From Chthoniobacteraceae bacterium (GTDB lineage: Bacteria; Verrucomicrobiota; Verrucomicrobiia; Chthoniobacterales; Chthoniobacteraceae): DNA of 25,284 nucleotides. Below the pieces are notes generated by a model, which made no database searches, had not been told where the DNA came from, and saw only the letters and a program-made list of their open reading frames with translations. The DNA lies in contig JBEBGK010000001.1 in NCBI GenBank assembly GCA_040081515.1, forward strand, positions 1-25,284, read 5' to 3'. The position numbers and the translations under genes are program-made. Below, piece by piece: positions 6,001-21,482 of this stretch (its first letter is position 1; each line of letters starts with the position of its first letter).

Positions 6001-6827
6001 GCCTCAGTCCAGGCGGAGGAGTTCTGATCATTCTTAAATCCGATCGCCTGATCGTCGTTGCCGATTCCATTGCCGTTGCCACTGTAGAACCCGCTATCAA
6101 AGGAACACTTGTAAATGATTCCGCGGTTGACGCTTGTTTCAATGCTTCGGAGCATAGGGCCAGCTGTCGAGAACCAGCAGTTGTGAATTATGACCGGCTT
6201 CCCGCCCGACACACCGGATATTCTCAAATGCTGCCCATCTCGCGCACTACCCTCGATGAACCGAATTCCTGAGACCTCGACGCTTTGTGTGTTGTTCTCT
6301 GTCAACTGGAGAAGCACGGCGGCACCGGCATTGTGGGTGATCGTTGTTGACTGCACGATGCCCAAAGTCCAGAGTGCTCGTGTGCCACTCCCAACCGCGG
6401 ATGTGACATCGAGACTCAAGGAATTACCAGCGTAGTTTGTGACTGTGCCCTCCATGTAGTTATTTCGCCCGTCCGCGGTGAAAAACGCTCTGACTTTCTG
6501 TCCCGTACTGAAGCCAAGCCCGGGCTGGGTAACGAACGTCTTCGACCCGGTGCCTATCGCGACCGATGACGTAGAATGACCCAACAAGCCTCCGCCGCCC
6601 GCTCCCTCCAGTCTAATTCCCTTGCCAGAATTGCTGATCCCCGCGGTCCACGCGAATGTTCCCGCGGGGATCCGGATAGTTGAACCAGACGGGGCAGCGT
6701 TAATCGCCGCCTGTGTATCGGCGGCCGTCCCGTCGGTTTGAAGAACTCCGTTACCTAGGTTCGTATACCCAAGGACCGGAACACAAGTTGAAACATAAAG
6801 GAGGAGTAGCCCGATGATGGTTTTCAT
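3009..6827 (-). CDS. Large secreted protein: signal peptide, right-handed beta-helix (pectin-lyase-like), three I-set Ig domains, second beta-helix with a choice-of-anchor-Q-like end (1272 aa)
   Basis: Start reassigned to ATG 6827 (MKTIIGLLLLYVSTCVPVLG-, Sec-like signal), since the track start at 7172 overlaps the upstream GT4. Motifs: DTQAAINAAPSGSTIRIPAGTF (beta-helix cap), YTYPHPL, three YQWQK...DAGxYRCVV repeats, TYYVD..GSDSNPGT...PW (second beta-helix cap), and SLQAGSGALNTG...WDIGAYE. Confidence 0.85.
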   Translation of the reverse strand: MKTIIGLLLLYVSTCVPVLGYTNLGNGVLQTDGTAADTQAAINAAPSGSTIRIPAGTFAWTAGISNSGKGIRLEGAGGGGLLGHSTSSVAIGTGSKTFVTQPGLGFSTGQKVRAFFTADGRNNYMEGTVTNYAGNSLSLDVTSAVGSGTRALWTLGIVQSTTITHNAGAAVLLQLTENNTQSVEVSGIRFIEGSARDGQHLRISGVSGGKPVIIHNCWFSTAGPMLRSIETSVNRGIIYKCSFDSGFYSGNGNGIGNDDQAIGFKNDQNSSAWTEASKMGMNDLDGLGNFYVEDCYFAGIYLQTMDFDGNARAVVRYCIFNNSAMSSHGADTGPVGARHYQIYNNNFVFNDIGALTYPLDYVFFIRGGTGVIADNVLADMQSTQWGTKPAIKMTVMNLRRNAGPNPCWNQGYPAPRQVGMGRVTGNGGNDSITYAGDSEPLYIWNNLGNPSAVTTDFGGSGCTSSASSSAYIQAGRDYFNNGTAKPGWVKYTYPHPLRGGGQAQGVPVITGNPQSLMCVVGQSLTLSVSASGAAPLSYQWQKGRSNIAGATGATYTISTVGMGDAGDYRCVVINSAGSTFSAEATITVSATSVAPTITGSPQALSRGTGETAAFSITAAGTAPLAYQWQKNQADIGGATSATFTILSVQTVDAGSYRCVVSNGSGSAVSVEAALIVAAPVSVAPVISTNPQPLTRAVGQSATFAVTAVGTAPIAYQWQKNGVNILGATAATYTIGSVSIGDAGNYRCVVSNSSGTITSSEALLTVNAAAVARTYYVDDSVGSDSNPGTAASPWRRCPGMVGWAGSATLQAGDKVYFNRAGTWSMGQNPSGPGLELKRGVHYVGNEWNPSGGESRRAVLRAIARHETGVVRFWEDDTSLPTWLQGFEIDGNNQRTNLIDINHSYWRTGLTNAVKRIEDCVAHGNTGNGSEGDYKYGIIVSDGSPDGSGHVSNVEILNTVVYDVARDAICLYPGSNGMISNILVRGCEAYNTGRDPSYSEGHGLLIKGNVRNAVIEFCFSHDVKASAAFVNGPEYGSGPGPSNCVLRYCVLQTVDNNGVIRFYGTGSKSVDIFGNIILPNEAGGGLSFAGNSGSIAARVFNNTFYNSFVDIGNPNSTGSIDFRNNIIYELDDVPFSDSGSDVTGHSNNVFFRVGAGTLVSVGAANYNAGNILGWEPTARSSDPLFRNSANLPTGFSGAYPASLAPNRDGLSLQAGSGALNTGADLGGVFGGSINSRLRPVDGAWDIGAYEGMSSGSLSAPVARGLPGPGYIVGP
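4531..5312 (-). repeat. Three tandem ~88-aa immunoglobulin I-set-like domain repeats
   Basis: Repeat starts at about 5312, 5048 and 4781 (spacing 264 and 267 bp). Shared pattern P.I..PQ....G....F/L.V.A.G.AP..YQWQK....I.GAT.AT..I..V...DAG.YRCVV.N..G...S.EA...V. Confidence 0.88.
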
Positions 6828-6933: not shown

Positions 6934-8310
6934 TTAACTCTCCACGCATTCTGCATAAACCTTCGCAATAATTTCAACCGCCTTTTCCCACGAATACCGC
7001 TCCGCCGCAAATTTCCGAATCTTAAAACGCGTCTCAGACATCTCACCGAACAAGTCACTAGAAAAAAACTGCTCGATTTTGGCTGCCAAATCGACAGCAT
7101 CATTCGGTTTGCAAACGAATCCCGTCTTCCCGATAATAATATCATCCGCAAGCGAGCCGACGTCTGACGCAATCACCGGAAGCCCGAAATTATACCCCAA
7201 AAAAAGAACCCCACTCTGAAAGATCTTGGTGTAGGGAAGCACGAAAACATCGGACGCTTTGAAAAACACCTCTGTCTCATCGTCCGGAACGTACTCGATG
7301 CGCCGCGTGACACTACCTCGTATTCCCAAAGTGTCGATTTGCCTCTCAATCCCCTCCCAGTAGGAAAGGCTTCCTTTCGGACGACCCGCTATAATCAACC
7401 TACAATCTGGTCGCAACGCGAGCACTTCCTTCATTGCTCCCACCAGGAACTCCAGGCCCTTATACGGAGCAATATTTCCAAAAAAAAGGACCACCTTCTC
7501 GTCCGAACTTACGCCCAAGCACTGACGAGCCTCCGCTTTGGAAAGCGCACTGTTTTTGACTGTCTCGTTAATTCCAAAGGGAATCACGCTAATCCGCCTT
7601 TGTGCAACACCAAAGTTCCCTATCAGTTCCTTCTTCATGCGCTCGGTATGCACAAAAATGTGGCTCACCAAGTGATACTGCGCCTTCAATGTCAAGCGGT
7701 TCCATATCGAATCGCAACCGTCCCGCCCGGCAGCATTTACATTATGAGCCGTCAATATAAGACGCTTCCCACATAGGCAATAGTACACCAGTAACAATGT
7801 GCGATCAAAAGCCTCAAACTTGTTATTCCAAAGAATGTGGAAGACCTTTGGCTTTGCAAAGGCCGCGTAGCACAATAGCTTCACATAATACATCAAAACA
7901 CGTGAAACCTTCTTCCACAGACTTGCATCAACACGCTGCTCACCCCGCAAATTCAGGAATCGAATGAGCGGATTTCCATGAAGGCTCGGTCCGTCAATCT
8001 CGTCACTTCCAACAAAGTCGAAAGAAATACCTTTCCCCGCCAGGCTTTCAGCAAGGCCCAGTGCATACGGCTTGTCCCGTCCGCCACTCAGCACACTCAC
8101 CTGGATTTCCCTCCCTCGCTGCTTACAGGGATTGCAGTCGACCTCCGATGAAAATACCGTCGGATTGCCTGACGCAGGATGCACTTCGAGGACTGAAGCT
8201 TCGTGCTCTCTAATCTCTTTCATCCCATCGGGAGTTGATGATATAAAATTCCTGAACCCGGAGGGAACAGGCTCCGAGCTTTTTAACGAAAGGAGGAGCC
8301 TACTGTACAT
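6934..8310 (-). CDS. Glycosyltransferase family 4 (GT-B)
   Basis: 458 aa as tracked; the true start may be downstream. Motifs LTAHNVN, IFVHT, VIPFGIN, VLFFGNIAPYKGLE, FQSGVLFLGYNFGLPVIASDVG and terminal YSWE. Confidence 0.9.
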   Translation of the reverse strand: MYSRLLLSLKSSEPVPSGFRNFISSTPDGMKEIREHEASVLEVHPASGNPTVFSSEVDCNPCKQRGREIQVSVLSGGRDKPYALGLAESLAGKGISFDFVGSDEIDGPSLHGNPLIRFLNLRGEQRVDASLWKKVSRVLMYYVKLLCYAAFAKPKVFHILWNNKFEAFDRTLLLVYYCLCGKRLILTAHNVNAAGRDGCDSIWNRLTLKAQYHLVSHIFVHTERMKKELIGNFGVAQRRISVIPFGINETVKNSALSKAEARQCLGVSSDEKVVLFFGNIAPYKGLEFLVGAMKEVLALRPDCRLIIAGRPKGSLSYWEGIERQIDTLGIRGSVTRRIEYVPDDETEVFFKASDVFVLPYTKIFQSGVLFLGYNFGLPVIASDVGSLADDIIIGKTGFVCKPNDAVDLAAKIEQFFSSDLFGEMSETRFKIRKFAAERYSWEKAVEIIAKVYAECVES

Positions 8311-8324
8311 TCGATCTCACTGTG

Positions 8325-9188
8325 TCACATTCCTGAACTACCACGGAGGTCGCTCAGGCCGCGCTCGGACTTCCAAAATACTTCAATGCTAGGCATCGAA
8401 CACCTGTCAAGCGTGGCGCTCATCTCATTTGTGCCCACCCAGTGCCGAAACGCCATTGCACCAGTACAATCAGAGACAAAATTCCATCGTGCAGAAGTAT
8501 CCAGCTTGTTTAACACTTCGATGCATTGACTGGCTTCTGGTCGGAACTCGGGAAGATTTACCTCAAATGATAGCATTGGGACGACCGTCTGCAGACCTTT
8601 CAATACCATCAATTCGTAGCCTTCGACATCAATTTTTACGTAGAACGGCCGCCCGTAGGCGGAGAACAGTTCCTCCAGGGTGGTCACCTCGACCTCCCGT
8701 TTCTGTTCAAATTCCAAAACTTCGCCGAACCGGCTTGCGTCCTCCTTCAATGTGTCAACCCACTTCTTGTTGAGCGTGTTCTTGGCGGAACCAGGTTCAG
8801 TCTCCCACATCGCTTCGGTTCCAACCTGGTCCCCCAGCGCCTTTCCCACGATCGTCAACGGCTTCTTGCACAATTGGAACCTCATGAATTTCTCGTCAAG
8901 GATTTCCTGGTTCGCCACATCGGGATCGACCGCAACGACGCGCGCGCCAAGCCTTAAGAAAATGTCTGTCTTGAATCCTTGATTAGCCCCAACATCAATG
9001 ATCAGCTCACCAGGCCTCATCTCCGTTAAGCTGTCGCGATAGAACGCCAATTCTTCATCGCGTCTCCGCAAAATCCGCCGGTCCGCGAGGGCCCAATATA
9101 GATCGTATAAGCGGGAAGCCTTGAGGCGATGGTATAACCCCGCCCGCCGGAGAGCATCCTGCACTCTCTGCTTAAAGTTTATTTTCAT
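8325..9188 (-). CDS. FkbM family SAM-dependent methyltransferase
   Basis: IIDVGANQG (motif I) and VKIDVEGYE (FkbM signature). Start taken at ATG 9188, which follows AGGAAG; GTG 9212 is an alternative. Confidence 0.88.
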   Translation of the reverse strand: MKINFKQRVQDALRRAGLYHRLKASRLYDLYWALADRRILRRRDEELAFYRDSLTEMRPGELIIDVGANQGFKTDIFLRLGARVVAVDPDVANQEILDEKFMRFQLCKKPLTIVGKALGDQVGTEAMWETEPGSAKNTLNKKWVDTLKEDASRFGEVLEFEQKREVEVTTLEELFSAYGRPFYVKIDVEGYELMVLKGLQTVVPMLSFEVNLPEFRPEASQCIEVLNKLDTSARWNFVSDCTGAMAFRHWVGTNEMSATLDRCSMPSIEVFWKSERGLSDLRGSSGM

Positions 9189-9211
9189 AAATGACTTCCT
9201 ATATTGGATCA

Positions 9212-11032
9212 CTACTGGTCACAAAGCAGGCACCGTTGAACCGCTTGAAGCGTGAGCACCGGACCGATGTCGTCAATTCGGTTACGCGCACCGCTAATAT
9301 GTTCGGCTGCCATTCTCCGGACCTCACTTGTATCCCAAATTCCACTTCTCCCGACGGCTGCCTCCTCCGCCGCCGCGCGCAAATAATCCGCGAGTTCGCG
9401 GCGAAACCAACGCCGATAGTGCAAATACTTGTGCTGCCCGAGAACGGGAATCACTCGGTTTATCGTTTTGATGCACGGATCAAGTCGAGTGAGCGCCTGT
9501 GGCATGCCTTCGTTGTTGTAGTAGTCCAGTTTGAACGTCACTTCTGCGAGACCGCGCCGCATGGCCCTTACCAACGAACTGCTGTTGCCGAGATACCCTC
9601 GGTCCGTCGGGATAGCCGCGAGCTTAGGATTGTGGCGCTTGATAAATCGGGTCGCAGTGCGCGATGACCGTCGCAGGCTCGCGGGCGCTCGATAGGCCAG
9701 CGACACGATTGCGTTGTCAAGAAACGGGGTTCGGAAGACAACCTGCGAACGGCACGCCACCAGGCTTGGCTGGATATTCCACGGAATTTCGCGAAACACA
9801 GCAAACGTCACTGGATGCATCTCCGACGCTCCGGAGCGGGACGCCCCCAAATCAAAACGGACGCCCTGAGAGCGTACCAGTTCCCGCGAGAACGGAACCG
9901 CCTTGAAGGTTGAGACGCCGCGTAGGATTTCACTCCCAAAAACTCCCGTCACCCGCAATGCTGATATAGACCGGGCAAGCCCGTTCAAATACACTTCATG
10001 CGCACCGACAGCCCCAAAGCTGCCGTCGGTCAGGTAGACGGTCCGCTCCACCCACTCACGAAATCTCGAGAAAAAATCCGGCCCAATCCGCAGCAGGTGA
10101 TGTTCAAGCCCACAAGCTGCGGCCACGCGCGATGCAACTTGCGCGTCGCGCGTTTCCCCAGTCACGCCGGCATAAGTGTAACAAACCGGAGGGCGCTTCG
10201 TTGGCGGTAGGCACGCCATGATCATCCTCGTGTCCATCCCGCCGGTAAGCGCGATGCCCGCTCGATTATCAGACTCGAAGTATGCCGGCAACACGCGCGC
10301 GAATGTCCCCGCCAATTCCTCCTCGAAAGAATCCTCAGCCAGCGGTGCTTGCTCTTCCCACTTTGCCGGCGTGAAATACTGCGCTTTTCTGCACAGCCCA
10401 TTCTCAATCCTCCACAGCGTACCGCCCGGCACCAATTCCATTCCGCGAAACAGCGTCCTCCAATCCAGTGTGCAGCCGAAACTCAAGAACTGCGCGACAC
10501 CCGTCTCGTCGAACGTCCGCAACTGGGGTAGCACCCGCAACAACGCCTTCGCCTCGCTCGCAAAATAGACCGCCTCTTTTGTCTCGTGCCAGTAGAGACG
10601 CTCAATACCGTACCGGTCGTTGAACAGGAATGCGCACTTGGAGCGCAGGTCCACCAGCAACCCGCTGAACAAACCATTCAGCGTCTCGAAGAACTTATCG
10701 CCCAATTCTTCGTAGAGATGGACCAGCCAGGCACCAGGCGTCGTTCCAAGGCTGTGACCCTTCTGCATCAGTTCAGACACGGTCGCCCCATCCACGAAGC
10801 ACTCACCTGAGAAAAGTACTGCCACGTCGCGCCGCTCGTTCCAGAACGGCTGCTCCGCGGCAAAAGAGCCGGCGTGCGCCACCCACCCTGCGTAGATTCC
10901 AAGCTCACCGAACACCTGACTGCCCGAAGTGTAGAACTTCTCATGGAGCATGCTCCGCGTCATGGATGAGACCAACCGTTGACACTCGTCCGGAGACTTC
11001 TGGCGGCTGATGATGCCTGCAATACCTGGCAT
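9212..11032 (-). CDS. Asparagine synthase-like protein with degenerate glutaminase domain (putative ATP-dependent amide ligase), 606 aa
   Basis: Start at ATG 11032 (MPGIAGII, aligning with MCGICG of AsnB). Retains NDRYGIERLYW, YFASEAKALL, ALTGGMDTR (SGGLDS-like loop) and RTPFLD. Confidence 0.85.
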   Translation of the reverse strand: MPGIAGIISRQKSPDECQRLVSSMTRSMLHEKFYTSGSQVFGELGIYAGWVAHAGSFAAEQPFWNERRDVAVLFSGECFVDGATVSELMQKGHSLGTTPGAWLVHLYEELGDKFFETLNGLFSGLLVDLRSKCAFLFNDRYGIERLYWHETKEAVYFASEAKALLRVLPQLRTFDETGVAQFLSFGCTLDWRTLFRGMELVPGGTLWRIENGLCRKAQYFTPAKWEEQAPLAEDSFEEELAGTFARVLPAYFESDNRAGIALTGGMDTRMIMACLPPTKRPPVCYTYAGVTGETRDAQVASRVAAACGLEHHLLRIGPDFFSRFREWVERTVYLTDGSFGAVGAHEVYLNGLARSISALRVTGVFGSEILRGVSTFKAVPFSRELVRSQGVRFDLGASRSGASEMHPVTFAVFREIPWNIQPSLVACRSQVVFRTPFLDNAIVSLAYRAPASLRRSSRTATRFIKRHNPKLAAIPTDRGYLGNSSSLVRAMRRGLAEVTFKLDYYNNEGMPQALTRLDPCIKTINRVIPVLGQHKYLHYRRWFRRELADYLRAAAEEAAVGRSGIWDTSEVRRMAAEHISGARNRIDDIGPVLTLQAVQRCLLCDQ

Positions 11033-11076
11033 GGGATGAAGAAAACCAACAAACCAAGGACGACGGACACCGACGC

Positions 11077-12024
11077 CTACTCGGCTCCGCTCATTCCATA
11101 CCAGCGGCTTCGGAGCTTTTTCAGTGAACTTTTCAAACCGCTCGGGATAAGCTCCCTCCAGCCGCGGTGCACGCCAAACTTCAAAGCCAACTTTCCCTTC
11201 GGCGTCAATGGCACAAAATAGCGAGGTACGCACATCTTCTCAAAACCACAGCGCCGCTTGAATTCCGCCAGCGAATCACCGCTCCAAAAAAGATAACAAA
11301 GATATGGCAACTTGCGCTGCGCACAGACCTCGACCGCCTTTGCAATGAGCGCGTTGTTTGTTCCTTTCTCGCGGTGCTCGACGGCTGAAATAATCTGACC
11401 GATTAAAGCAAATTTCCCTGTGTTAGCCATCATGATAAACCCAATCAGTTTATCGTCAAGGTAAGCACCAATCATATATTCGCGGTGGATGTAACGCGAA
11501 AACTGAGCCTTGACGGTTTCAAAATTCTTCCCGTAATGCCAGAACTTTCTCCCCTGTCGGACGGGTGTCTCGTTGAAGATAGCAGTCATACCGCGCACAA
11601 AGCTGTCATCGTACGCAGTCTCGCGCACAACGATGCCTTCCTTCTCCGCCTTACGAATCAGTCCACGGGTGCGAGACTTGATCTGCTTATTGAACCAGTG
11701 CTCGTAGCTTTGGATGGGCAACACGGCGATCTCCTCCCACTCGCTCTGAAATGAATGCCTCGGCTCCAAGTCGGGCAACCGCTGCCAGAATGTGAAAATA
11801 TCCGGCTTGAAACCATCGCTATTCTTCAACGTCTCGATCATCGCGCTCGGATCGCGCACGTCGTCGTACCACTCTTCCTCAAGGCTCAACATCGTCAGCG
11901 GCCCACGGCTCACGGCGTACGTTTGACCGGCGATTTCGAAGCACTCGACCTGCGTCGGCCTACCTTTCACCAAGGTCTCTTTCGTAATGCGCTTGAACGC
12001 CTCAGAGGGCTTTGACGCGATCAT
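11077..12024 (-). CDS. GNAT-fold / FemAB-like acyl- or aminoacyl-transferase
   Basis: 315 aa. SRTRGLIRKAEKEGIVV resembles the FemAB/Acetyltransf_6 'R..IRKA.K.Gv' motif. Also AYLDDKLIGF, GTNNALIAKAVE and LAEFKRRCGF. ATGA overlap with asnB. Confidence 0.7.
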   Translation of the reverse strand: MIASKPSEAFKRITKETLVKGRPTQVECFEIAGQTYAVSRGPLTMLSLEEEWYDDVRDPSAMIETLKNSDGFKPDIFTFWQRLPDLEPRHSFQSEWEEIAVLPIQSYEHWFNKQIKSRTRGLIRKAEKEGIVVRETAYDDSFVRGMTAIFNETPVRQGRKFWHYGKNFETVKAQFSRYIHREYMIGAYLDDKLIGFIMMANTGKFALIGQIISAVEHREKGTNNALIAKAVEVCAQRKLPYLCYLFWSGDSLAEFKRRCGFEKMCVPRYFVPLTPKGKLALKFGVHRGWRELIPSGLKSSLKKLRSRWYGMSGAE

Positions 12025-13955
12025 ATTCCCGACGCTCCCGCGACTGTTGTGCTACTTTCTTTTGGTGCGAGATTTGCCCGGTGCACAACCAAGCCGCGCA
12101 ACCACTGTTCTACCATCACCAGGCTGAAGAGCAATTTGTAATTATTTGCGCGTCCAGCGCGATGCGCTTCCAACAACCCACGTACCGCTGCGGGATTGAT
12201 CACGCGATACATCAGCGACTGCTCGTCCTGCAGCGCTTCTGTCAGTTGCCCGCCCGCGGAGGAATTAAACCACCCGTCCACGACGTTCACCGCAAACCCA
12301 CGCTTCTTGCGCTGCAGTATCTGCGGCGGAAGGAACCTTCCGCAGACCTCACGATGAATCCACTTTCGCCTGCCACTGCGGATCATGAAACTCGCCCCAA
12401 GGCGCTGGGCGAACTCCACCACTGTCCGGTCCAGATACGGCACGCGCACCTCGATGCTGTGCGCCATGGATATCTTGTCTCCGAACATAAGCAACTCATC
12501 GGGCAGAGACGAACGCACTTCGAGGAGCTGAAACCCGCCGAGTTCGTCCAGGTGCGCCATTTGCGGCAGCAGTTCGCGCCAGTAATCCACCGTCGCGTGG
12601 CCGCGGCCCGGGGGCAGGGCGCCCTCCTGAAAGAGTCCATCAATTGTGGCCAGCGGCGCCAACGAAAACACGCTTTGATAGCGTTCTAATCGGTCCGCCG
12701 TTCCGAGCGACTGCACGCCCCGCTTCAACGCCTCATTGCGCGGCAGCGCATTCACCGCTGCACCCACTACAGATCGCAGTGGCGAGGGCAGACCACGCCA
12801 GAACCGGCCGTAATGGACTCCCAGATGCCTCGTATAGCCGGCAAACAGTTCATCCGGTCCTTGGCCAATGAGAGCCACCTTAACGTCCTGCCTCGCGCGC
12901 TGGCAGACGAAATACATAGGAACAATCGAAGACGACGTGACCGGTTCCTCGAGGGAATCCACTATCTTCGGGAATGAACGCTCAAATTCGCCTCGATCCA
13001 GCAATACTGGAATGAACTTCCCGCCGAGCAGACGCGCGGTCTCCTCCGCATCCTTGAGTTCATCGTCCTCGAACGACTCGCCGTAGCCTACGGTATAGCA
13101 TGGCCAGTCCTTGCCGTGCTCGTTCATCAGCGCCAGCAAGAGTCCCGAGTCGAGTCCCCCGCTCAATAGAATTCCCACCGGGACATCGCTCAAAAGGTGT
13201 CGCTTAACCGCGCCGCGGTACAGTTCGAGAAGTTCTTGAATCGCATCCTCGTCCTCTTTCGGTCTCTCGAAGGGCACCGGCACGTAGTCATACCAGCGCT
13301 CCTCCCGGCAGTGTCCATGCTCCTCCACCACGAGCATTGCGCCCGGCGGGAGCTTACGGATGCCTTGGAACATGGTCAGCGGCGACGGAACATAGCGGAA
13401 TCGCAGGAACAGATTCAGGGCCACTGGGTCGAGTTCGGGAGCCGCCGGTTCACCCACGAGCACCGCGCGGATTTCCGAGCCGAACACCAGACACCCACCG
13501 GAGTTCCGGTAATAGACCATTTTGATGCCCATCGCGTCGCGTGCCACAATGAGCCGTCGTTTCCGCACGTCCCAGATCGCGAACCCGAACATCCCATTGA
13601 AACGCTTGAACGCATCCGTGCCCCATTCCTTGTAACCGTGGACGATGACCTCAGTGTCCGAGCGGGTTCGGAATCGATGTCCTTTCGCCTCGAGTTCAGC
13701 ACGCAGTTCAAGGTAGTTGTAAATCTCACCATTGAACACGACCCACACCGACTCCTCCGAATCGGACATCGGCTGATGCCCTCCTGAAAGATCAATGATT
13801 GAGAGTCGCCGGAATCCGAGCCCGAGGTTCCCGTCGAAGAAAAAGCCCTCATCGTCTGGCCCCCGATGAACGATCGACATGGCCATCTGCCGCACCTTTT
13901 CCTCAAGCACGCGTTCCTGGTTGGCGAAATTAAACTGTCCGCAAATGCCGCACAT
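12021..13955 (-). CDS. asnB: Asparagine synthase (glutamine-hydrolysing) family amidotransferase
   Basis: 644 aa. MCGICG (Ntn Cys2), HRGPD, GFRRLSIIDLSGGHQPM, VFNGEIYN, LLSGGLDS, GQGPDELFAGY and RVPYLD. Context suggests polysaccharide amidation rather than Asn synthesis. Confidence 0.93.
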   Translation of the reverse strand: MCGICGQFNFANQERVLEEKVRQMAMSIVHRGPDDEGFFFDGNLGLGFRRLSIIDLSGGHQPMSDSEESVWVVFNGEIYNYLELRAELEAKGHRFRTRSDTEVIVHGYKEWGTDAFKRFNGMFGFAIWDVRKRRLIVARDAMGIKMVYYRNSGGCLVFGSEIRAVLVGEPAAPELDPVALNLFLRFRYVPSPLTMFQGIRKLPPGAMLVVEEHGHCREERWYDYVPVPFERPKEDEDAIQELLELYRGAVKRHLLSDVPVGILLSGGLDSGLLLALMNEHGKDWPCYTVGYGESFEDDELKDAEETARLLGGKFIPVLLDRGEFERSFPKIVDSLEEPVTSSSIVPMYFVCQRARQDVKVALIGQGPDELFAGYTRHLGVHYGRFWRGLPSPLRSVVGAAVNALPRNEALKRGVQSLGTADRLERYQSVFSLAPLATIDGLFQEGALPPGRGHATVDYWRELLPQMAHLDELGGFQLLEVRSSLPDELLMFGDKISMAHSIEVRVPYLDRTVVEFAQRLGASFMIRSGRRKWIHREVCGRFLPPQILQRKKRGFAVNVVDGWFNSSAGGQLTEALQDEQSLMYRVINPAAVRGLLEAHRAGRANNYKLLFSLVMVEQWLRGLVVHRANLAPKESSTTVAGASGI

Positions 13956-13961
13956 TGGATT

Positions 13962-15191
13962 CTATTTCGCTCCCATTCCGCTTGTCTCGTAATGATAGAA
14001 TGCGAGGGCCCGAAACATCTGGGATTGTGCCCAACGATGCATCGGCACGTTATCCCACCCGAGAATCAACTGCCTCGAGCGGAACGAACCATCGGACTTT
14101 ACCCAATCCCGCAGGACCCCCGAAACAACTGCTTCCAGTTTCTCATTGAGTTCCGGGATGCGGTCCCGCAGCAGCAGACACAGGTTAATGCACTCAGCAC
14201 AGTCATAAAGTTCGCGCTTGTAAACCGTCAACCTCGGCGCAACCGCAAACGGCCTAGGGAGCCCGTCCTCTGCAAACAGGTGTTCGAGATAATATTTAAC
14301 ACCTCGCTCCAGCGCCTCCAGCGTAGCCTGATGACCGGTGAGTGAGTGAATCTTCGCCAGCGCCTTCATTACGAAGCAGGTGTGGAAATGATCCACGAAG
14401 TCACGAACACCATCGACTGCATATGGCCAGGATCCATCTGGATTCTGGCTCTGAAGCACGAAATGCAGATTGCGAGTTGCAGTCCTACGATAGGTCTCAT
14501 CGCCGAGGACCTGAGATGCGCTCGTGAGAAGGAAGGCCCGGTAGGCCGCTGCGTTGATGACACCGCCGCGATCAAAAGGGGTGTAGGAGCAACTGCTGGC
14601 CGTCTCCGATGTCGGAAAGTCCTTGATGTCCGTCGCCGCATGCCGGGCGATGGATGCCAGCACATCGCGCCATTCCGTCCTCGGGTCGATCTGATGGACA
14701 TGCAGAAACGCCTCGTATGCATACGGCGTGCTCGTAATCAGCGGAGTTTGAGCTGGAATGACTCCATTCCGCGTGACCCAATCGAACGGATAACCCCAGC
14801 AATACTCCTTGAACCCTCCGCACCGACTTCGCCTCAATTCGTTGAGAAAATGAATCGCCTTTTCCAAGTGTAACGCGCTCTTCGTCTCCTGGGAAAGAAA
14901 AGCAAAGCCCATCGCGTAGTGTGCATCAGCGATCGGAAAGCGGATGCGCCGATGAAACAGTTGCCGGGCGGACGGCATGAACGCCTCGCAAAAGACCATC
15001 GGCGCGACCGCCAATAATCCTGCTCGAGGCTGGCGGTAATAGAGTTGTTTGGCCCGAGCGCCCAGCGGACCTGCAAAAAAGCTCTGATGGTCCCATGAAT
15101 CCTCACCGTAGCGATCAAGCCAGCGTTCAAAGTCCCCGAGGGCGACGGATACCCTTGCGGCAGGAAACTCCGAACTGTGCAACGGTTCCAT
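13962..15191 (-). CDS. Uncharacterised polysaccharide-cluster protein, probable (alpha/alpha)6 barrel (AGE/epimerase/terpene-cyclase-like fold)
   Basis: 409 aa, helical. CWGYPFDW, QSQNPDGSWPY (QW-like repeat), VDHFHT and WAQSQMFRALA. The fold is inferred from repeat spacing only. Confidence 0.55.
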   Translation of the reverse strand: MEPLHSSEFPAARVSVALGDFERWLDRYGEDSWDHQSFFAGPLGARAKQLYYRQPRAGLLAVAPMVFCEAFMPSARQLFHRRIRFPIADAHYAMGFAFLSQETKSALHLEKAIHFLNELRRSRCGGFKEYCWGYPFDWVTRNGVIPAQTPLITSTPYAYEAFLHVHQIDPRTEWRDVLASIARHAATDIKDFPTSETASSCSYTPFDRGGVINAAAYRAFLLTSASQVLGDETYRRTATRNLHFVLQSQNPDGSWPYAVDGVRDFVDHFHTCFVMKALAKIHSLTGHQATLEALERGVKYYLEHLFAEDGLPRPFAVAPRLTVYKRELYDCAECINLCLLLRDRIPELNEKLEAVVSGVLRDWVKSDGSFRSRQLILGWDNVPMHRWAQSQMFRALAFYHYETSGMGAK

Positions 15192-16112
15192 TCAGCGCGA
15201 TTTCTGGGGCTCCGCCTCAAGGGAAAAGTTGTCCACTTTCTTCAGCCGAAGCAGTGATCTCAAGATAGCCTTAAGCTTCCGCATCTGGTCCTTGCGGTGA
15301 AATTGCATCAACTCTGGAGAAACCGCCCGCTTCATCCGCCGTGCCGCGGCCCACCAATAGCCGAGGAATAGCGCCAACCCACCGGTAACAACTGGCTTTT
15401 TGAACATGCGGTACACAACCCGGAACATCTGCCAAATGGGAGAACCGCCCAGATAATAGTCCTTCTCCCCGTATGAGACGAGAGCACTCAGCACACCTCG
15501 CTCCGCGGTTCCCATTGTCCGGTGGTGATGAAATCGTCTCTCCGGATAGGAACGGACACCCCAGCCCTTCATTCGCGCTGTCATCACGGCAATCCAGTCG
15601 ACCCCACCAGCCTTATTGGCAACGTAGCCGCCAATGTCCCGAAAACAACGATATCGGAACAATTGGCAGGGGCCTGCAACGTAGTTTTCACCCTCAAAAC
15701 TGTCGCGCGTGGAATCATAGCCTTCCTCGGTAAACGGCGTCCCAACGATGCCCAAGCCCGGATCGTCGGCTAACTTACCTACCAAAAACTGAAGGTAGTC
15801 GGGTTCGAACGTCACGTCGGCGTCGAGGTTGCCCAGCACGTCAAAATCAAGCCCTTCGGCACGCTCAAGACCCGCATTCACCGCCTGAGCTTTACCCGCG
15901 AAGCTTCGTTCGCTCCGTTTCGGGCGCTGCACAAGCTCAATCCACTGGTACCCGGAAGCGAATTGTTTCACCAAGTCAACCGTGCGGTCCGTTGAGCCGT
16001 CATCGACAATTATCCACCGAACCGGAAGTTGAGTCTGACTTGCGACAGCATGCATCGTCCGTTCGATGACTCGCTCCTCGTTTTTCGCTGCGGTGATAAG
16101 GACGTAATTCAC
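15192..16112 (-). CDS. Glycosyltransferase family 2
   Basis: 306 aa. YVLITAAKNEE, WIIVDDGSTD and the DxD motif in NLDADV. GTG start overlaps the upstream TGA. Confidence 0.92.
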   Translation of the reverse strand: MNYVLITAAKNEERVIERTMHAVASQTQLPVRWIIVDDGSTDRTVDLVKQFASGYQWIELVQRPKRSERSFAGKAQAVNAGLERAEGLDFDVLGNLDADVTFEPDYLQFLVGKLADDPGLGIVGTPFTEEGYDSTRDSFEGENYVAGPCQLFRYRCFRDIGGYVANKAGGVDWIAVMTARMKGWGVRSYPERRFHHHRTMGTAERGVLSALVSYGEKDYYLGGSPIWQMFRVVYRMFKKPVVTGGLALFLGYWWAAARRMKRAVSPELMQFHRKDQMRKLKAILRSLLRLKKVDNFSLEAEPQKSR

Positions 16113-17227
16113 TTCGATATAGTCGCGGGCGCATACTGCCTTAATGTCTCCCGGTCAGCATAAATCTGCGCGAATATTTCATCCATAATCCGAGCTGTTT
16201 GGACGATCTCACGATATGGAATGGGTGGAGGACCTGAGAGCTCAATGCTCTCGTAGAAGCGGCCGATGAGTTCCTTCATTCCAGAATCCTGATGCAGCTT
16301 CCGGGCGAGAAAACTCGAAATGTTCCTTCCAGCATTCAAGAGGTGCTCCCATGCATTCAGCACAGGCGGAACAAAATAGGTCAAATAGCTCTTCCAGCTT
16401 CGATTGAAGTGGCGGAGCACCGTTCCGCTTGCAATATCCACTGTCAGCGAGTTCCGCGGCCCGCAGACCCGGAATTGATTGATTCCGGGCTTGATCTGCG
16501 TGGAGAATGAGAAAAATGCCGTCGTTCCCTTTCTGTCTTGAATTAAGACGCGCAACTCATCCAAGACCTCCTGGCCACCCATGCTGCGGAGTTTTTCGCT
16601 CTGTCCGGCAACGGCCACAATGTGGGTCAGTTCATCGTCGAGAAACTCCACAATTCTGGCTACACCATGGCTGACGACGTTGTGAAGCAACTGGCCCGGA
16701 AGTTGCCTCACCCAGTGTCCGCGACTTCCCAGAATCGGGCCCACATAGCTCGCGTCTCCCAAGTCATAGGCGAAATGGCTTTCGAGATGCACGGGCTTCC
16801 CGCCAAGGAATCCCTTCTGGACGAGCCTTCGCATCGCAAGCATCTCGTTCGTGAATTGATAATTATGCCCGGCAGTGATTTTCCTCCCTGAACTGGCGGC
16901 TTGGGCGGTCAAGGATTCCGCCTCGACGGCGGTTACGGTGAAGGGTTTCTCCAGATAAACATGACAGCCACCCTGCAGGCATTGGCTCGCCAACGCAAAG
17001 TGTCCTTGTGGAGGGGTGGTGATATGAACCACGTCTGGCTTACTTACAGCCAACATTTCCGCCAAATCGGAGAAATGGCGTTCAATTTCAAACCGTTCCG
17101 CAAGCTGGCCTGCCATCAACATCTCGCGATCACAAACAGCAACAATTCCGCAGCCCCCAATACGATGCACAGCCTGCACATGCTGGTCTGCAATTTTTCC
17201 ACAGCCTACGATGGCGATTCGCAGCAT
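16109..17227 (-). CDS. Gfo/Idh/MocA family oxidoreductase
   Basis: 372 aa. RIAIVGCGKIA (Rossmann), DVVHITTPP..H and HVYLEKP. Confidence 0.9.
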   Translation of the reverse strand: MLRIAIVGCGKIADQHVQAVHRIGGCGIVAVCDREMLMAGQLAERFEIERHFSDLAEMLAVSKPDVVHITTPPQGHFALASQCLQGGCHVYLEKPFTVTAVEAESLTAQAASSGRKITAGHNYQFTNEMLAMRRLVQKGFLGGKPVHLESHFAYDLGDASYVGPILGSRGHWVRQLPGQLLHNVVSHGVARIVEFLDDELTHIVAVAGQSEKLRSMGGQEVLDELRVLIQDRKGTTAFFSFSTQIKPGINQFRVCGPRNSLTVDIASGTVLRHFNRSWKSYLTYFVPPVLNAWEHLLNAGRNISSFLARKLHQDSGMKELIGRFYESIELSGPPPIPYREIVQTARIMDEIFAQIYADRETLRQYAPATISK

Positions 17228-17236
17228 AAACGTTCG

Positions 17237-18316
17237 CTATTTCGCCTCAAATTGCCCCAGAAAAAGCGACATCGCCTGCTCCAATGGCACCCGAGGTTTC
17301 CACCCCAGCCGCTCACGGAGCTTCTGATTTGAAAACCGGTTTCCCTTCCATTCAGCTGAACAACGGCGTTTGTTGAATGCCAGCGGGAGCTGCCCCTCCG
17401 ACCAGCGGGAATATCTCTCCCAGAGGGCACAGAGTACGTACGCAAGGGAATACGGAAGTCGAACTGAAAAAAAACGCGACACCCGCCCCTTGTAAGCCCG
17501 CAGGAACTCACTCCCGGTCAACAGGTCATCATCGACAATATTAAACACCTCCCCCTCGACACCACGACGCAGACCAGCCAAAACCACCGCATCCGCACAA
17601 TTATCCACGAATGTCATCGGCAGGACTTGAGATCCGCCCACTTGCATGAAAAAGCCAAACGTGTCGATACCGACACGTCCGCTCAAATCACGCTTACCCG
17701 GCCCAAAAACCATGCCCGGGCGGAGAATCACATACGGCAAACCCCGCTTGTCGCCATAATATCTGACGGTTTGCTCTTGCTTCAACTTGCCAAAGCCGTA
17801 CGCATCGAACCTCGCTTGCGGAGCATCTTCCAGAGGGGAGTTCTCGTCCAACGTGGCCCCCCGCCTCATGTTAAAATTCGAATACACCGCAGACGAGCTT
17901 ACGTTTACGAATCGCTTTACTTTCCCAGACTCCAAAAATGCCTCAATCAGGTTGCGCGTCGAAAGCACGGAATTCATGAAGGCCCCAGCAAAGGATTTGT
18001 CAAATCCAGCAGCCAAGTGGTAAATGACCGATACCCCTGCGGTAGCCCTTCGACAGTCTTCCCGTGACAGCAAATCGCCCTCGCAAACCTCAACCCCCTT
18101 CGAATCAGGCAACCCTCCAATCACCGCGCTCAGTCTTTCCCGCCTACTCGAAGGCCTTACAAAACAGCGAATATGCCTAAAGCCTCTCGCCAGCAAGCTT
18201 TCAACAACCTTCACGCCGATGAAGCCATTGGAACCGGTCACCAGAACTACTTCTTCCACCCCAACGCAATCACCACAGTCAGGCATTGCGCCCAAAGAGT
18301 CATCAGGTAGGTTCAT
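17237..18316 (-). CDS. NAD-dependent epimerase/dehydratase (extended SDR)
   Basis: Start taken at ATG 18316, because the tracked start overlaps wzy. VLVTGSNGFIG, YHLAA, VSSSAVY, YGFGK (YxxxK) and ILRPGMVFGPG. Confidence 0.9.
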   Translation of the reverse strand: MNLPDDSLGAMPDCGDCVGVEEVVLVTGSNGFIGVKVVESLLARGFRHIRCFVRPSSRRERLSAVIGGLPDSKGVEVCEGDLLSREDCRRATAGVSVIYHLAAGFDKSFAGAFMNSVLSTRNLIEAFLESGKVKRFVNVSSSAVYSNFNMRRGATLDENSPLEDAPQARFDAYGFGKLKQEQTVRYYGDKRGLPYVILRPGMVFGPGKRDLSGRVGIDTFGFFMQVGGSQVLPMTFVDNCADAVVLAGLRRGVEGEVFNIVDDDLLTGSEFLRAYKGRVSRFFSVRLPYSLAYVLCALWERYSRWSEGQLPLAFNKRRCSAEWKGNRFSNQKLRERLGWKPRVPLEQAMSLFLGQFEAK

Positions 18317-18384: not shown

Positions 18385-19761
18385 CTATCCCACGGCTACC
18401 GAACTTCCTCGCGGATGCACATCCCTCATGGAATCCATCGATACGCTCCCCCCTCTGCTTCGCCGGCAATCCAGCGCGATAATGTAGAAAGTAAACCATA
18501 CAACGTGCAGAGCTTTCAGAGCAGCTTCGGTATAGTTGTAGAGCAGAAAGGCGAATAGAAATCCGATTCGCAATTGGCCAAATCGAAAATCCCGAAGAAT
18601 CTCTCGTCTAGCCTTGCGATAGGTAGAGAGTATCAGCCCGATCAAAATAAACACTCCAATCCATCCGAGATTCAAATATGTCTCCAAATACCCATTATGA
18701 GCCTGATTCGGCTGGAACGGAAAGATTTCGCCAAGCTTTTTGTAGCGCTCCCCGAGCCAAAAGCTTTCAAAGCCAGCTCCAAGAACTGGGTTAATGTCAA
18801 TGTTTAAAACCTCTCTCCAGATGTCCGTCCGGTCCGTTAGAGTAGCGTTTCTCCCAAGGAGTTGCAGCGTCCCAGCATAGATTCCGAAGGCAAGCTCGGC
18901 AAGAGATGCAATCAGCAGTGCAACCAGGACGTAAGTTCCGAAATTCCGCTTATTTACAATTCGCAATGAAAGGATCGCCATTGTCACTACACCAGCAATG
19001 AGTGACATTAATGACGTCTTACTGTCTGCCATCCAGAGCAACCACAGGATCATAATGAGAAAAGTCACATTGATGACAATCTCATTTCGTCGCGAAGCAC
19101 TCTTGGGATTATTCCAAAGCCTGTATAAACTCCAAATAAAGACAACGCCTAAAACAAGGCAATCCGCCCCCAGGATGTTTTTATTCAGCGTGACACCGGT
19201 ATTCGTAGCTGCGCCGGTCCATCCGTCGAAGCCTCGGCCGAATTCGGGAAGATACTTGATGAAAATGACCGAAAGTGGCATTAAGATATATGCGCTTCTT
19301 CTCATCACCGTTGTCACGGCTTGTGAGACATCGCGTTCAGTCATTATGATGAGCGCCATGATTGGATGGCCTAAAATCTTGATCCATCGCTTAAACGCAA
19401 CAAATGGGAAATCAGACCAGACAATTGCTACAAAGCAGTAGGCGAGGAAGATGGTCAGCCACTGGTTTTGCTGAATAAGGGAGCGCAGCGAAACTCTCCG
19501 TTTTCGCAGAATATTAACACCTCCTGCGATTAGGCCAAAAAAGACAACGGCATCGATGGGGCTGCCGTCCTCGAGCGAACCACCACCAACTGATAATCCG
19601 AATGTGTCCAGCCATTGGGAGAGAAATCTCGACCCGATTATTACAACCCAGATTGTTGGAAGCCAAAGAGCGCCGCTTACACCTACTCCCTGCCTGGAAT
19701 CACGATTAAATAAATAGCCGATAAACCCGAGGGTTATGATGAGGGCTAGGAGCGGAGGCAT
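18385..19761 (-). CDS. O-antigen ligase / Wzy-like polymerase family membrane protein
   Basis: 458 aa with many hydrophobic segments. NKNILG, SKTS, RTDIW, GAGFESFW and AHNGYLETYLNLGWIG (conserved His loop of the Wzy_C/WaaL family). Confidence 0.88.
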   Translation of the reverse strand: MPPLLALIITLGFIGYLFNRDSRQGVGVSGALWLPTIWVVIIGSRFLSQWLDTFGLSVGGGSLEDGSPIDAVVFFGLIAGGVNILRKRRVSLRSLIQQNQWLTIFLAYCFVAIVWSDFPFVAFKRWIKILGHPIMALIIMTERDVSQAVTTVMRRSAYILMPLSVIFIKYLPEFGRGFDGWTGAATNTGVTLNKNILGADCLVLGVVFIWSLYRLWNNPKSASRRNEIVINVTFLIMILWLLWMADSKTSLMSLIAGVVTMAILSLRIVNKRNFGTYVLVALLIASLAELAFGIYAGTLQLLGRNATLTDRTDIWREVLNIDINPVLGAGFESFWLGERYKKLGEIFPFQPNQAHNGYLETYLNLGWIGVFILIGLILSTYRKARREILRDFRFGQLRIGFLFAFLLYNYTEAALKALHVVWFTFYIIALDCRRSRGGSVSMDSMRDVHPRGSSVAVG

Positions 19762-20968: not shown

Positions 20969-20999
20969 AATTCGAAATAAATTCTGCGACTGTTGGAAC

Positions 21000-21476
21000 T
21001 CAGAGCGACCGGACCAGCCGTGCGGGATTGCCCGCATAGATTCCTGGCTTTGAGATGTCCTTTGTTACCACTGCGGCGGCGCCGACGACCACTCCGTCGC
21101 AGATGGTAACGGGCAGTATCGTTGCATTCGTGCCGATGCTGACTCCATTCCCGATTCTTGTGGAACGCCAGAGGTCGCGACGCCCTTTCGCGGGCCCGCC
21201 GATCGAGAAGAGGTCATTAATGAACATCGCCCCGTGGGAGATGAAACAGTCGTCACCAATTGTTACGAGTTCACAGATAAACGCGTGAGACTGAATCCTG
21301 CAGCGTCTTCCAATGGTTACATCACGCTGAATCTCGACAAACGGCCCAACAAAGCTGCCATCACCGATTGAGCAACCATAGAGATTCACCGGCTCAACAA
21401 CGGTGACTCCGTCTCCAAACGTGACGTCGATGATTCCGGCCTTCCGGAGTGTCGGTTCCTTCGAGATGCTTGCCAT
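21000..21476 (-). CDS. Hexapeptide-repeat (left-handed beta-helix) N-acetyltransferase (WbpD/WlbB-like)
   Basis: 158 aa. Hexapeptide repeats SIGDGS, TIGRRC, TIGDDC, RIGNGV, plus SHGAMFIND and YAGNPAR. Confidence 0.92.
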
Positions 21477-21482
21477 AATTCG

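Follow-up and report, generated by a model that had tools for sequence, protein, structure and literature searches.

A mosaic surface-polysaccharide locus in a Chthoniobacteraceae assembly resembles, in its proposed tailoring logic, the Wbp/Vim pathway for an amino-acid-bearing sugar amide

Which chemistry could be carried out by a run of genes that brings together two AsnB-type proteins, a FemAB-like transferase and an FkbM-family methyltransferase? The run occupies positions 8325-18316 of the 25,284-nt stretch of Chthoniobacteraceae DNA analyzed here (the window), and lies within a surface-polysaccharide locus. An earlier note, made from the sequence alone, described it as eight contiguous, mostly coupled genes and knew of no characterised pathway with such a combination. 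The ORF listing together with Pfam and NCBIfam scans confirmed eight contiguous, tightly packed genes, all on the minus strand, and the family assignments of all eight hold. The absence of a known pathway does not, since the same enzyme set with a solved product is on record (PMC7468200; PMC13086638). The Wbp/Vim pathway of Porphyromonas gingivalis comprises the diamino-sugar genes WbpB/E/D, the AsnB amidotransferase WbpS, the deacetylase VimE and the FemAB-like VimA, and its product is 2-N-seryl-3-N-acetylglucuronamide; this linking-sugar pathway, which includes WbpA, is also found in Tannerella forsythia (PMC7468200). By analogy, the logic of the window resembles this published route to an amino-acid-bearing sugar amide, of which it may be an uncharacterised variant. 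The GC content of the contig is 54.7% vs. 63.4% for the metagenome-assembled genome (MAG), and therefore the contig is either an island or mis-binned.

The run begins with the FkbM-family methyltransferase (8325-9212; PF05050), which scores 74.4 bits against TIGR01444, above the cut-off of 37.7, and thus belongs to that family. It overlaps by 1 nt, at 9212, with the second AsnB (AsnB2, 9212-11032; GATase_7 and a partial Asn_synthase match), and a spacing of 44 nt separates AsnB2 from a Fem/VimA-like tandem-GNAT transferase (11077-12024), which in turn shares 4 nt (12021-12024) with a glutamine-dependent, WbpS-like AsnB-type amidotransferase (AsnB1, 12021-13955). Next come a cytoplasmic alpha/alpha-toroid protein of 409 aa (13962-15191), a GT2 glycosyltransferase (GT2b, 15192-16112; PF00535, E 5e-23), a Gfo/Idh/MocA oxidoreductase (GFO2, 16109-17227; PF01408, E 2e-26) that overlaps GT2b by 4 nt (16109-16112), and an extended SDR of the epimerase/reductase type (17237-18316; PF01370, E 1e-28), with gaps of 0 to 9 nt at 13955/13962, 15191/15192, and 17227/17237. 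A longer SDR start, at 18499, would overlap the adjoining gene for a Wzy_C-domain membrane protein (18385-19761, minus strand; PF04932, E 6e-12), a polymerase or ligase with about nine hydrophobic segments. The SDR has a Y-x-x-x-K motif as well as a segment rich in Ser (SSSAVYS) and reached no equivalog in NCBIfam, and the nearest solved structures to GFO2 are sugar and inositol dehydrogenases. On the other side lies a GT4 glycosyltransferase on the same strand (GT4b, 6934-8310; PF00534, E 1e-21).

The diamino-sugar genes and the deacetylase that the earlier note had invoked beside the eight genes were found as well, on the minus strand. The diamino-sugar trio (19871-22556) consists of a DegT aminotransferase (19871-21037; DegT, E 2e-108), a hexapeptide N-acetyltransferase (21000-21476), whose PDB matches include the WlbB-type LPS acetyltransferase 3mqg and QdtC, and a Gfo/Idh/MocA protein (21483-22556), whose best NCBIfam match is a UDP-GlcNAc 3-dehydrogenase at a sub-threshold 129 bits. 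The divergent deacetylase (22553-24214) matches NF053580 (VimE) over residues 312-447 only (E 2e-13, 49.5 bits vs. a cut-off of 440), a match shared by all nine members of its family, in which T-H-D-V-D, H315, D318, R345, and H442 are invariant. Its predicted model is poor (pLDDT 47), and its neighbors in the Atlas are PF01522 deacetylase clusters (TM 0.68-0.77). Together these results indicate a distant VimE homologue with a CE4-like fold, not a VimE equivalog. No UDP-sugar 6-dehydrogenase occurs within the window; one UDP-sugar dehydrogenase is encoded elsewhere in the MAG (contig C188), and only two related loci carry one.

Whether these neighbors belong together was approached through 87 related loci, 47 of which had enough flank to read the order of the Fem-like gene and AsnB2, and 18 were flanked well enough for a gene inventory. 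The Fem-like gene is followed on the same strand by AsnB2 in 44 of the 47, and a Wzy-like homologue (35-55% identity) is present in 16/18, a GT4b homologue (about 50% identity) in 12/18 and a GT2b homologue in 11/18 of the well-flanked loci. The SDR/Gfo pair occurs in seven of these 18, and its members are neighbors in 11/11 loci that have the two; the toroid protein adjoins AsnB1 in 18/22 loci with both, and the VimE-like gene, present in 7/18, adjoins AsnB1 in six of the seven loci holding both. An FkbM homologue was seen in a single well-flanked locus, and DegT within 10 kb in six; some related loci have heptose genes in place of the trio or the VimE-like gene. The trio and the VimE-like gene are absent within 10 kb in most loci, and the core pair therefore needs neither nearby. 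Hence, the eight genes are a mosaic of recurring sub-modules around the Fem-like transferase and AsnB2, which form the core, usually with the Wzy-like gene, whereas SDR+Gfo, toroid+AsnB1, and the VimE-like gene recur as optional sub-modules and FkbM is an accessory gene outside the conserved core. The earlier note had staked its cassette on co-occurrence in other genomes, and the genes do co-occur far beyond chance, so that this ground for rejecting it falls away; the recurring set nevertheless differs from the eight named, since FkbM and SDR/Gfo are mostly missing and the Wzy and GT4 genes, which accompany the core, lie outside its limits. The mosaic composition and the variable gene order among loci could also suggest chance neighbors assembled by O-antigen-type shuffling with no common pathway. 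Given the near-invariant adjacency of the sub-modules across phyla and the high identities across loci (up to 79% for the GNAT, 59-72% for AsnB1), we regard this as very improbable. For the core, these data already largely refute it, whereas FkbM may be such a chance neighbor. Acidobacteriota, Verrucomicrobiia, and Gammaproteobacteria all include carriers, but the distribution is patchy (0/400 and 0/300 sampled genomes in two phyla).

The first member of the core, described earlier as FemAB-like, is borne out at the level of fold. Its AF2 model (pLDDT 86) retrieves with Foldseek, as top matches, the aminoacyl-tRNA-dependent transferases Sbb17/Sba18, FemX, and MprF (E 1e-10 to 1e-8), with TM scores of about 0.5-0.6 (0.5-0.57 for the top ones) and 10-13% sequence identity. 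The best of them are FemX (PDB 1ne9) and Orf11/Sbb17/Sba18 (9wqw), which have the Lys of the FK motif in common, and two of the top matches aminoacylate an amino sugar (9wqw, 9wqy). Orf11/Sbb17/Sba18 attach glycine to the amino sugar of streptothrisamine (PMC12945691), which shows that amino sugars can be aminoacylated in a tRNA-dependent manner. The FemAB match of the window GNAT itself is non-significant (E 0.08). VimA matches the Fem-like family TIGR03019 (PMC7468200). The TIGR03019 HMM gave no match to the window GNAT, and hhalign aligned it with TIGR03019-like proteins (94.9%, E 4e-8) over residues 96-298, the C-terminal GNAT domain, with no alignment of the N-terminal third. Modeling thus predicts a Fem-type tandem-GNAT fold with the FK-motif Lys, in a family that counts 2577 protein clusters in metagenomes. 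The protein could instead be an ordinary acyl-CoA-dependent N-acyltransferase that modifies the amine of a sugar with acetyl or another short acyl group, which would leave a glycan with amides and N-acyl groups and no amino acid. Pfam sees only Acetyltransf_1 (E 2e-5), a profile search of the PDB yields generic acetyltransferases alone (E above 0.1), and the Foldseek list also holds acetyl-CoA tandem GNATs (VipF, clavulanate GNAT). On the other hand, every one of the best fold matches uses aminoacyl-tRNA, the homology to the TIGR03019 family points the same way, F255-K256 is invariant across 32 sequences, and two hallmarks of acetyl-CoA enzymes are altered: the position of the catalytic Tyr is an invariant Lys, aligned with the FK of Fem-like proteins, and the CoA-pyrophosphate motif, usually R/Q-x-x-G-x-G/A, reads R-D/E-K-x-T-N. 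We consider ordinary acylation rather unlikely.

AsnB1 starts with MCGI, contains the SGGLDS motif, and matches Asn_synthase with E 1e-76. It exceeds the cut-off of TIGR01536 (449 vs. 267 bits), and its best NCBIfam match is TIGR03108, the family in which WbpS and WbqG are placed (PMC7468200), at 467 bits, below the cut-off of 817. Every glutaminase residue (Cys1, Arg49, Asn74, and Asp98) is conserved among 26 homologues, as is the PP-loop, so that by sequence AsnB1 appears to be an AsnB-type amidotransferase whose glutaminase site is intact, as in WbpS. It resembles WbpS/WbqG in being a complete AsnB of the glutamine-dependent kind, encoded among glycan genes, and in its sub-threshold TIGR03108 match; the equivalent of Glu348 is Gln in all 26 AsnB1 homologues. 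The adjoining toroid protein gives weak matches within its family to SQHop_cyclase_C (20/20 members), Pec_lyase (13/20), and GlcNAc 2-epimerase (5/20), its Atlas neighbors (TM 0.88-0.91) bear the automatic name D-glucuronyl C5-epimerase family, and D267-H268-x-H270 is invariant. It is a candidate sugar epimerase.

The second core member, AsnB2, truly starts at MPGIAG, whose Met is residue 68 in the longer ORF; by Atlas comparison it has the full AsnB fold (TM about 0.8). What the earlier note called a glutaminase-dead AsnB proved to be a trait of the whole family: among 44 homologues the N-terminal Cys nucleophile is replaced by Pro in 43 and by Ser in one, Arg49 has become Trp in 43, Asn74 is Ser, Ala, or Thr, and Asp98 is unconserved. 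AsnB2 is thus predicted to have a dead glutaminase half and a retained PP-loop, T-G-G-x-D-T (cf. S-G-G-x-D-S), in which the Thr, second Gly, and Asp occur in 44/44 homologues, the first Gly in 33, and the final Thr in 38. Losses extend to the synthetase half, where the equivalents of Glu348, Asp351, and Lys429 are gone and the Asn_synthase Pfam match spans only 100 of 354 positions. Together with the missing nucleophile and the loss of most glutaminase residues, these features would suit a pseudoenzyme that forms no bond of its own and acts as partner or scaffold for AsnB1 or the Fem-like transferase. Conversely, the position equivalent to Lys449 has Lys in 39 homologues and Arg in four, the Glu352 equivalent is retained, and across phyla, with a median identity of 40%, another 25 or so C-terminal positions reach a conservation of at least 95%. 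Moreover, the Cys-less relatives beta-lactam synthetase, carbapenam synthetase, and lasso-peptide cyclases are active amide-forming enzymes. A scaffold role seems to us unlikely.

Placed beside the Wbp/Vim pathway, the window has putative counterparts of its 3-dehydrogenase, aminotransferase, 3-N-acetyltransferase, AsnB-type amidotransferase, CE4 deacetylase, and FemAB-like transferase. In Wbp/Vim, the AsnB-type enzyme makes the uronamide, and Ser or Gly is transferred to the freed amine by the FemAB-like enzyme. The WbpB/WbpE/WbpD-type families are present and adjacent, the dehydrogenase match being sub-threshold, and all window counterparts are distant and below curated family cut-offs. AsnB2, the toroid protein, the SDR+Gfo pair, and FkbM are additions without counterpart in Wbp/Vim, and there is no T9SS context. 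The window genes are also not scattered but grouped in a repeat-unit locus of the Wzy type. Exopolysaccharide (EPS) loci of the PEP-CTERM type, e.g., the psc1 cluster of Rubrivivax gelatinosus, contain these families too (PMC3684757), among them the TIGR03108 amidotransferase, the TIGR03019 FemAB-related protein, and the PEP-CTERM deacetylase. The XrtA/PEP-CTERM inventory and the window have in common more than one AsnB paralogue, a gene related to FemAB, a deacetylase gene, numerous GT4/GT2 genes, and wzy and wzx, and the heptose genes of some relatives fit it as well. PEP-CTERM families, namely the TIGR03108 amidotransferase and GT families, are the best NCBIfam matches of AsnB1 and three window GT4s; the window scores against TIGR03108, TIGR03087, TIGR03088, and TIGR04063 are all below cut-off. 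Unlike those loci, neither the window nor the related loci contain a chain-length/EpsB-type gene, and the absence of exosortase from the window and the roughly 85 related loci sets them apart from the XrtA/PEP-CTERM type. This absence also counts against the idea, raised by Veith et al. for VimA-like genes in PEP-CTERM loci (PMC7468200), that the product is not a bulk decoration but one linking sugar whose free amino group serves as the attachment point for secreted proteins, put there by an exosortase or similar sorting enzyme much as T9SS cargo is anchored. In favor of it, the MAG encodes at least four exosortases on other contigs, and several window glycosyltransferases have PEP-CTERM/XrtA families as their best, sub-threshold matches; the contig, however, may not belong to the MAG, and the Wzy-like gene and several glycosyltransferases that accompany the core pair fit a repeat-unit polymer. 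We judge a linking sugar to be quite improbable.

Decoration of the glycan with amide, N-acyl or aminoacyl, and methyl groups is a reasonable reading of this inventory; the zwitterionic or peptide-decorated polymer that the earlier note envisaged is conjecture. That the stretch is the tailoring portion of a Wzx/Wzy-type locus and works by Wbp/Vim logic, by analogy yielding an amide- and aminoacyl-bearing sugar, is a joint proposal to which we give an even chance, as to the scheme below, in which every substrate, the step order, and the aminoacyl donor are our inference and the observed part is the gene families, transferase fold, site conservation, and cross-phylum synteny. The 3-dehydrogenase, DegT aminotransferase, and hexapeptide acetyltransferase would produce a 2,3-diacetamido sugar nucleotide, after which AsnB1, with glutamine, would convert a sugar carboxylate, probably of a uronic acid, to the amide. 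The VimE-like CE4 enzyme would strip one N-acetyl group, and the Fem/VimA-like transferase would load an amino acid, probably from aminoacyl-tRNA, onto the freed amine. AsnB2 most likely would form a second amide bond without glutamine through its adenylating PP-loop, with a carboxylate as one partner and, as the other, an amine that is not ammonia released from glutamine, e.g., that of an amino acid or of the new aminoacyl group. Optionally, the toroid protein and SDR+Gfo may alter sugar configuration and FkbM may methylate. Several observations count against the scheme: AsnB2, with three synthetase residues lost, could be inactive; every Wbp/Vim-type match falls far under its curated cut-off; most loci have neither trio nor VimE-like gene within 10 kb; the window is without a UDP-sugar 6-dehydrogenase; and acetyl-CoA tandem GNATs stand among fold matches of only 0.5-0.6 in TM.

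A more specific reading of the core, which we put forward tentatively and hold to be possible rather than probable, is that the Fem-like transferase and AsnB2 are a two-enzyme unit building an amino-acid or short-peptide bridge on a sugar, with AsnB2 as an ATP-dependent ligase of a sugar or aminoacyl carboxylate and a non-ammonia amine. If so, the unit would represent a new class of glycan-amino acid ligase, encoded by a module that moves horizontally among bacteria of soil and freshwater from several phyla.

The window, a complete contig of 25,284 bases (C1023), carries eighteen genes, all of them (18/18) on the minus strand in the ORF listing, and Pfam and NCBIfam searches recovered the eight that the earlier note had named between 8325 and 18316, each with its family. 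These are an FkbM gene (8325-9212), a second AsnB (AsnB2, 9212-11032), a GNAT protein (here called Fem-like, 11077-12024), an intact AsnB (AsnB1, 12021-13955), a 409-aa protein with weak alpha/alpha-toroid matches only (13962-15191), a GT2 (GT2b, 15192-16112), a Gfo/Idh/MocA oxidoreductase (GFO2, 16109-17227) and an extended SDR (17237-18316). By coordinates, neighbouring genes in this set overlap by 1-4 nt or are separated by at most 9 nt, the exception being 44 nt before the second AsnB. Transcriptionally upstream lie a Wzy_C membrane protein (Wzy, 18385-19761), a DegT aminotransferase, a hexapeptide acetyltransferase and a second Gfo/Idh/MocA (together 19871-22556), a 553-aa protein (22553-24214) and a GT4, and downstream are found another GT4 (GT4b, 6934-8310), a secreted double beta-helix/Ig protein (3009-6827), a GT2 and a GT4.

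Related loci, 87 in number, were gathered from species genomes, assemblies and metagenomes, and the window proteins were mapped onto them. The Fem-like gene is followed by AsnB2 on the same strand in 44 of the 47 loci with enough flank, with a gap of less than 400 bp in 32 of these 44. Gene presence was counted in 18 loci having at least 7 kb on each side, where AsnB2 occurs in all 18, Wzy in 16, AsnB1 and the toroid protein in 13 each, GT4b in 12, GT2b in 11, the other GT2 (GT2a) in 10, the SDR, GFO2 and the 553-aa protein in seven each, DegT in six, and FkbM in one. Smaller associations recur as well: the SDR adjoins Gfo in every locus with both (11/11), the toroid gene adjoins AsnB1 in 18 of 22, and AsnB1 adjoins the 553-aa protein gene in 6 of 7. 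Extras vary from locus to locus, among them a Wzx flippase, GDP-heptose genes, a GT9, SAM methyltransferases and a sulfotransferase. By these counts and adjacencies, the eight genes divide into four or more sub-modules, assembled in mosaic fashion around an unvarying Fem-like and AsnB2 pair. They had been proposed as one cassette, which does not survive the comparison of FkbM (1/18), SDR and Gfo (7/18 each) with AsnB2 (18/18); what does co-occur elsewhere is the pair (44/47) and the sub-modules, but not the eight-gene set as a unit. Part of the truly conserved set falls outside 8325-18316, and the inherited unit is the pair plus a Wzy-like gene, not the eight genes.

Other proteins of these neighbourhoods deserve mention. 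Single beta-helix proteins of about 480-575 aa, found in 21 of 40 related loci, each correspond to one half of the double beta-helix/Ig protein of the window, which seems to have arisen by tandem fusion of two such units and belongs to the conserved neighbourhood. Two recurrent unannotated families are absent from the window, a soluble 589-aa family in eight loci (L012:4785-6554) and a 532-aa family with about seven hydrophobic segments in five loci (L078:8252-9850), the latter positioned between Wzy and the Fem-like gene. Both were compared by hhalign as candidate hidden relatives of the deacetylase, AsnB or GNAT proteins, with zero relation found.

The two AsnB paralogues were compared residue by residue with E. 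coli AsnB (from NC_000913.3), using 26 AsnB1 and 44 AsnB2 homologues. AsnB1 retains Cys1, Arg49, Asn74, Asp98, the PP-loop, Asp351, Lys429 and Lys449, and the position of Glu348 is Gln in all 26 (the window protein and 25 homologues). In E. coli AsnB, Glu348 is required for acyl-adenylate formation with aspartate, and the Gln of AsnB1 fits a substrate other than aspartate. In AsnB2, the description as glutaminase-dead was borne out: Cys1 is missing, the N-terminus being M-P-G-I in 43 of 44, Arg49 is replaced by Trp, and Asn74 by Ser, Ala or Thr. Of its PP-loop T-G-G-x-D-T, the Thr, second Gly and Asp are kept in 44/44, the first Gly in 33/44 and the final Thr in 38/44; Glu352 and Lys449 (39 K, 4 R) are retained, Glu348, Asp351 and Lys429 are gone, and about 25 more C-terminal positions show conservation of 95% or more in a family whose median identity is 40%. 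A full AsnB fold is assigned to it in the Atlas. Taken together, the residue losses and the retained PP-loop and C-terminal positions indicate that the glutaminase half is dead as an old family trait, and that the adenylating half is altered yet under constraint. One Acidobacteriota homologue (L011:10001-11757; G404:C14:1786263-1787739) matches in two pieces, broken by one and two in-frame TGA codons respectively, and is probably a pseudogene.

The Fem-like family comprises 2577 protein clusters, the best 120 of these 2577 being at 63-83% identity, and a confident model was obtained from 32 sequences (pLDDT 86). Its top solved fold matches are all aminoacyl-tRNA-dependent tandem-GNAT transferases, namely Sbb17 and Sba18 (E 1e-10, TM 0.56), whose substrate is the amino sugar of streptothrisamine, followed by Weissella FemX, MprF and aminoacyl-phosphatidylglycerol synthases, with acetyl-CoA tandem GNATs ranked lower. 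The TIGR03019 (PEP-CTERM FemAB) model gave no match to the protein, and the GNAT alignment profile found zero Fem proteins by sequence in the PDB. Profile-profile comparison with six TIGR03019-like proteins gave 94.9% probability (E 4e-8, residues 96-298), and F255-K256, invariant in the family, aligns with the FK of these proteins and also with the site that carries the catalytic Tyr in ordinary acetyltransferases. Because of the Fem-type fold matches, the profile match and the shared FK, the protein can be called FemAB-like by its fold and its distant homology.

Among the flanking genes, the second Gfo/Idh/MocA has UDP-GlcNAc 3-dehydrogenase as its top NCBIfam match (129 bits, sub-threshold), and solved relatives of the hexapeptide acetyltransferase include the WlbB-type LPS acetyltransferase 3mqg and QdtC, both 3-amino-sugar N-acetyltransferases; together with DegT, they form the set of genes expected for a 2,3-diacetamido sugar. 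A Pfam scan of the 553-aa protein returned zero domains. The NCBIfam model for VimE, a UDP-2,3-diacetamido-2,3-dideoxyglucuronate deacetylase, matches it and all eight relatives (E 1e-13 to 1e-14), far below the 440-bit cut-off (49.5 bits for the window protein) and in the C-terminal 135 residues only. Since the model built from a 9-sequence alignment was poor (pLDDT 47.5) and a fold search with it gave 0 significant matches, we relied instead on this match and on its Atlas structural neighbours, PF01522 polysaccharide-deacetylase clusters (TM 0.68-0.77). T-H-D-V-D, His315, Asp318, Arg345 and His442 are invariant in this VimE-like family. The 409-aa protein is an alpha/alpha-toroid without a specific family. 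It is a candidate C5-epimerase as a lead only, the idea coming from the automatic name (D-glucuronyl C5-epimerase family) of its Atlas neighbours, whereas its alignment profile matched only squalene-hopene cyclase repeats in the PDB (E 5e-5). Its invariant D-H-x-H and His385 are candidate pocket residues. A link to hopanoid genes, with HpnA, HpnB and squalene cyclase as top weak matches, was judged to be generic family similarity.

In P. gingivalis the T9SS linking sugar is 2-N-seryl-3-N-acetylglucuronamide, produced by WbpA/B/E/D (Veith et al., PMC7468200). WbpS is an AsnB whose part in uronamide formation was shown by deletion, VimE is a putative CE4 deacetylase, and VimA is a FemAB-like, TIGR03019-matching protein whose interspecies exchange switches Ser to Gly; vimA, vimE and asnB homologues are found together in PEP-CTERM and other loci (PMC7468200). 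The same pathway is restated in PMC13086638. Three wbpS-type genes stand in the Rubrivivax psc1 EPS cluster beside genes for a deacetylase and a FemAB-related protein (PMC3684757), and Orf11 of the BD-12 pathway is an established case of an enzyme that aminoacylates an amino sugar in a tRNA-dependent way (PMC12945691). The earlier note knew of no characterised pathway with this combination, and the Wbp/Vim pathway is one (PMC7468200). The window shares its logic, but with a VimE match far below the cut-off and no TIGR03019 match. It also differs from the PEP-CTERM/XrtA families, reaching 467 of 817 bits for TIGR03108, with all XrtA glycosyltransferase families sub-threshold; an exosortase is absent from the window and from about 85 related loci. 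Elsewhere in the MAG there are at least four exosortase (PF09721) genes (contigs C1088, C249, C404, C136, C544) and a TIGR03019-like Fem protein (contig C50), so that a separate PEP-CTERM-type system is present in the bin. No precedent is known for the obligate Cys-less AsnB partner, the toroid protein or the SDR and Gfo pair.

We see about an even chance that the window encodes a Wbp/Vim-like sequence with a further AsnB2 amide bond. A diamino sugar would be made first, AsnB1 would amidate a carboxylate, de-N-acetylation would follow, the Fem-like enzyme may then aminoacylate with aminoacyl-tRNA as putative donor, and AsnB2 would form a further glutamine-independent amide bond, the epimerases and FkbM being optional extras. 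Against this Wbp/Vim reading, most related cores lack diamino-sugar and deacetylase genes within 10 kb, the cassette contains no uronic-acid-forming gene, and AsnB2 could be a pseudoenzyme. The interpretation of the earlier note is supported in part: amide, N-acyl/aminoacyl and methyl substituents are plausible, but the eight genes are not one unit and a characterised precedent exists.

Uncultured members of the Acidobacteriota, Verrucomicrobiia and Gammaproteobacteria carry the pair, the named carriers being three Acidobacteriota MAGs, one Verrucomicrobiia MAG, a Candidatus Competibacter assembly and a Thiotrichaceae MAG. A single genome can contain more than one such locus: a Verrucomicrobiia MAG (G402, the genome of L009) has three full-length AsnB2 copies on different contigs, and a Sulfotelmatobacter MAG (G401, the genome of L008) has two, with a Fem-like gene near each. 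Carriers are rare within a phylum: samples of 400 other genomes from the phylum to which the MAG belongs and of 300 from that of L008 contained no further copy of the Fem-like gene. The MAG itself is fragmented (5.0 Mb, 1170 contigs, 84.5% completeness), and the GC content of the window's contig, C1023, is 54.7% against 63.4 +/- 1.9% in MAG contigs of at least 8 kb (z = -4.7), with a tetranucleotide distance at the 99th percentile. This odd composition, the patchy occurrence and the high identity between phyla suggest horizontal transfer, which is usual in O-antigen-type loci; alternatively the contig is mis-binned. Whether C1023 is a glycan island gained by horizontal transfer or a binning error, its host assignment is unsafe. 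DNA near-identical to 9212-15191 is present in two drinking-water metagenome runs (98% and 84% of sampled words), with partial matches in freshwater and sediment metagenomes, and this comparison yielded no RNA evidence.

Bacterial surface glycans change in charge and antigenicity when they bear amino-acid and amide substituents, and to our knowledge very few enzymes attaching amino acids to sugars are known. As a practical correction of annotation, the pair plus the Wzy-like gene should be treated as the inherited unit. The Fem-like and Cys-less AsnB pair is conserved and has no member known to have been studied; its chemistry, once solved, would carry the Wbp/Vim logic beyond two oral pathogens into environmental bacteria and would explain what a large set of proteins annotated as "asparagine synthase-related" do.
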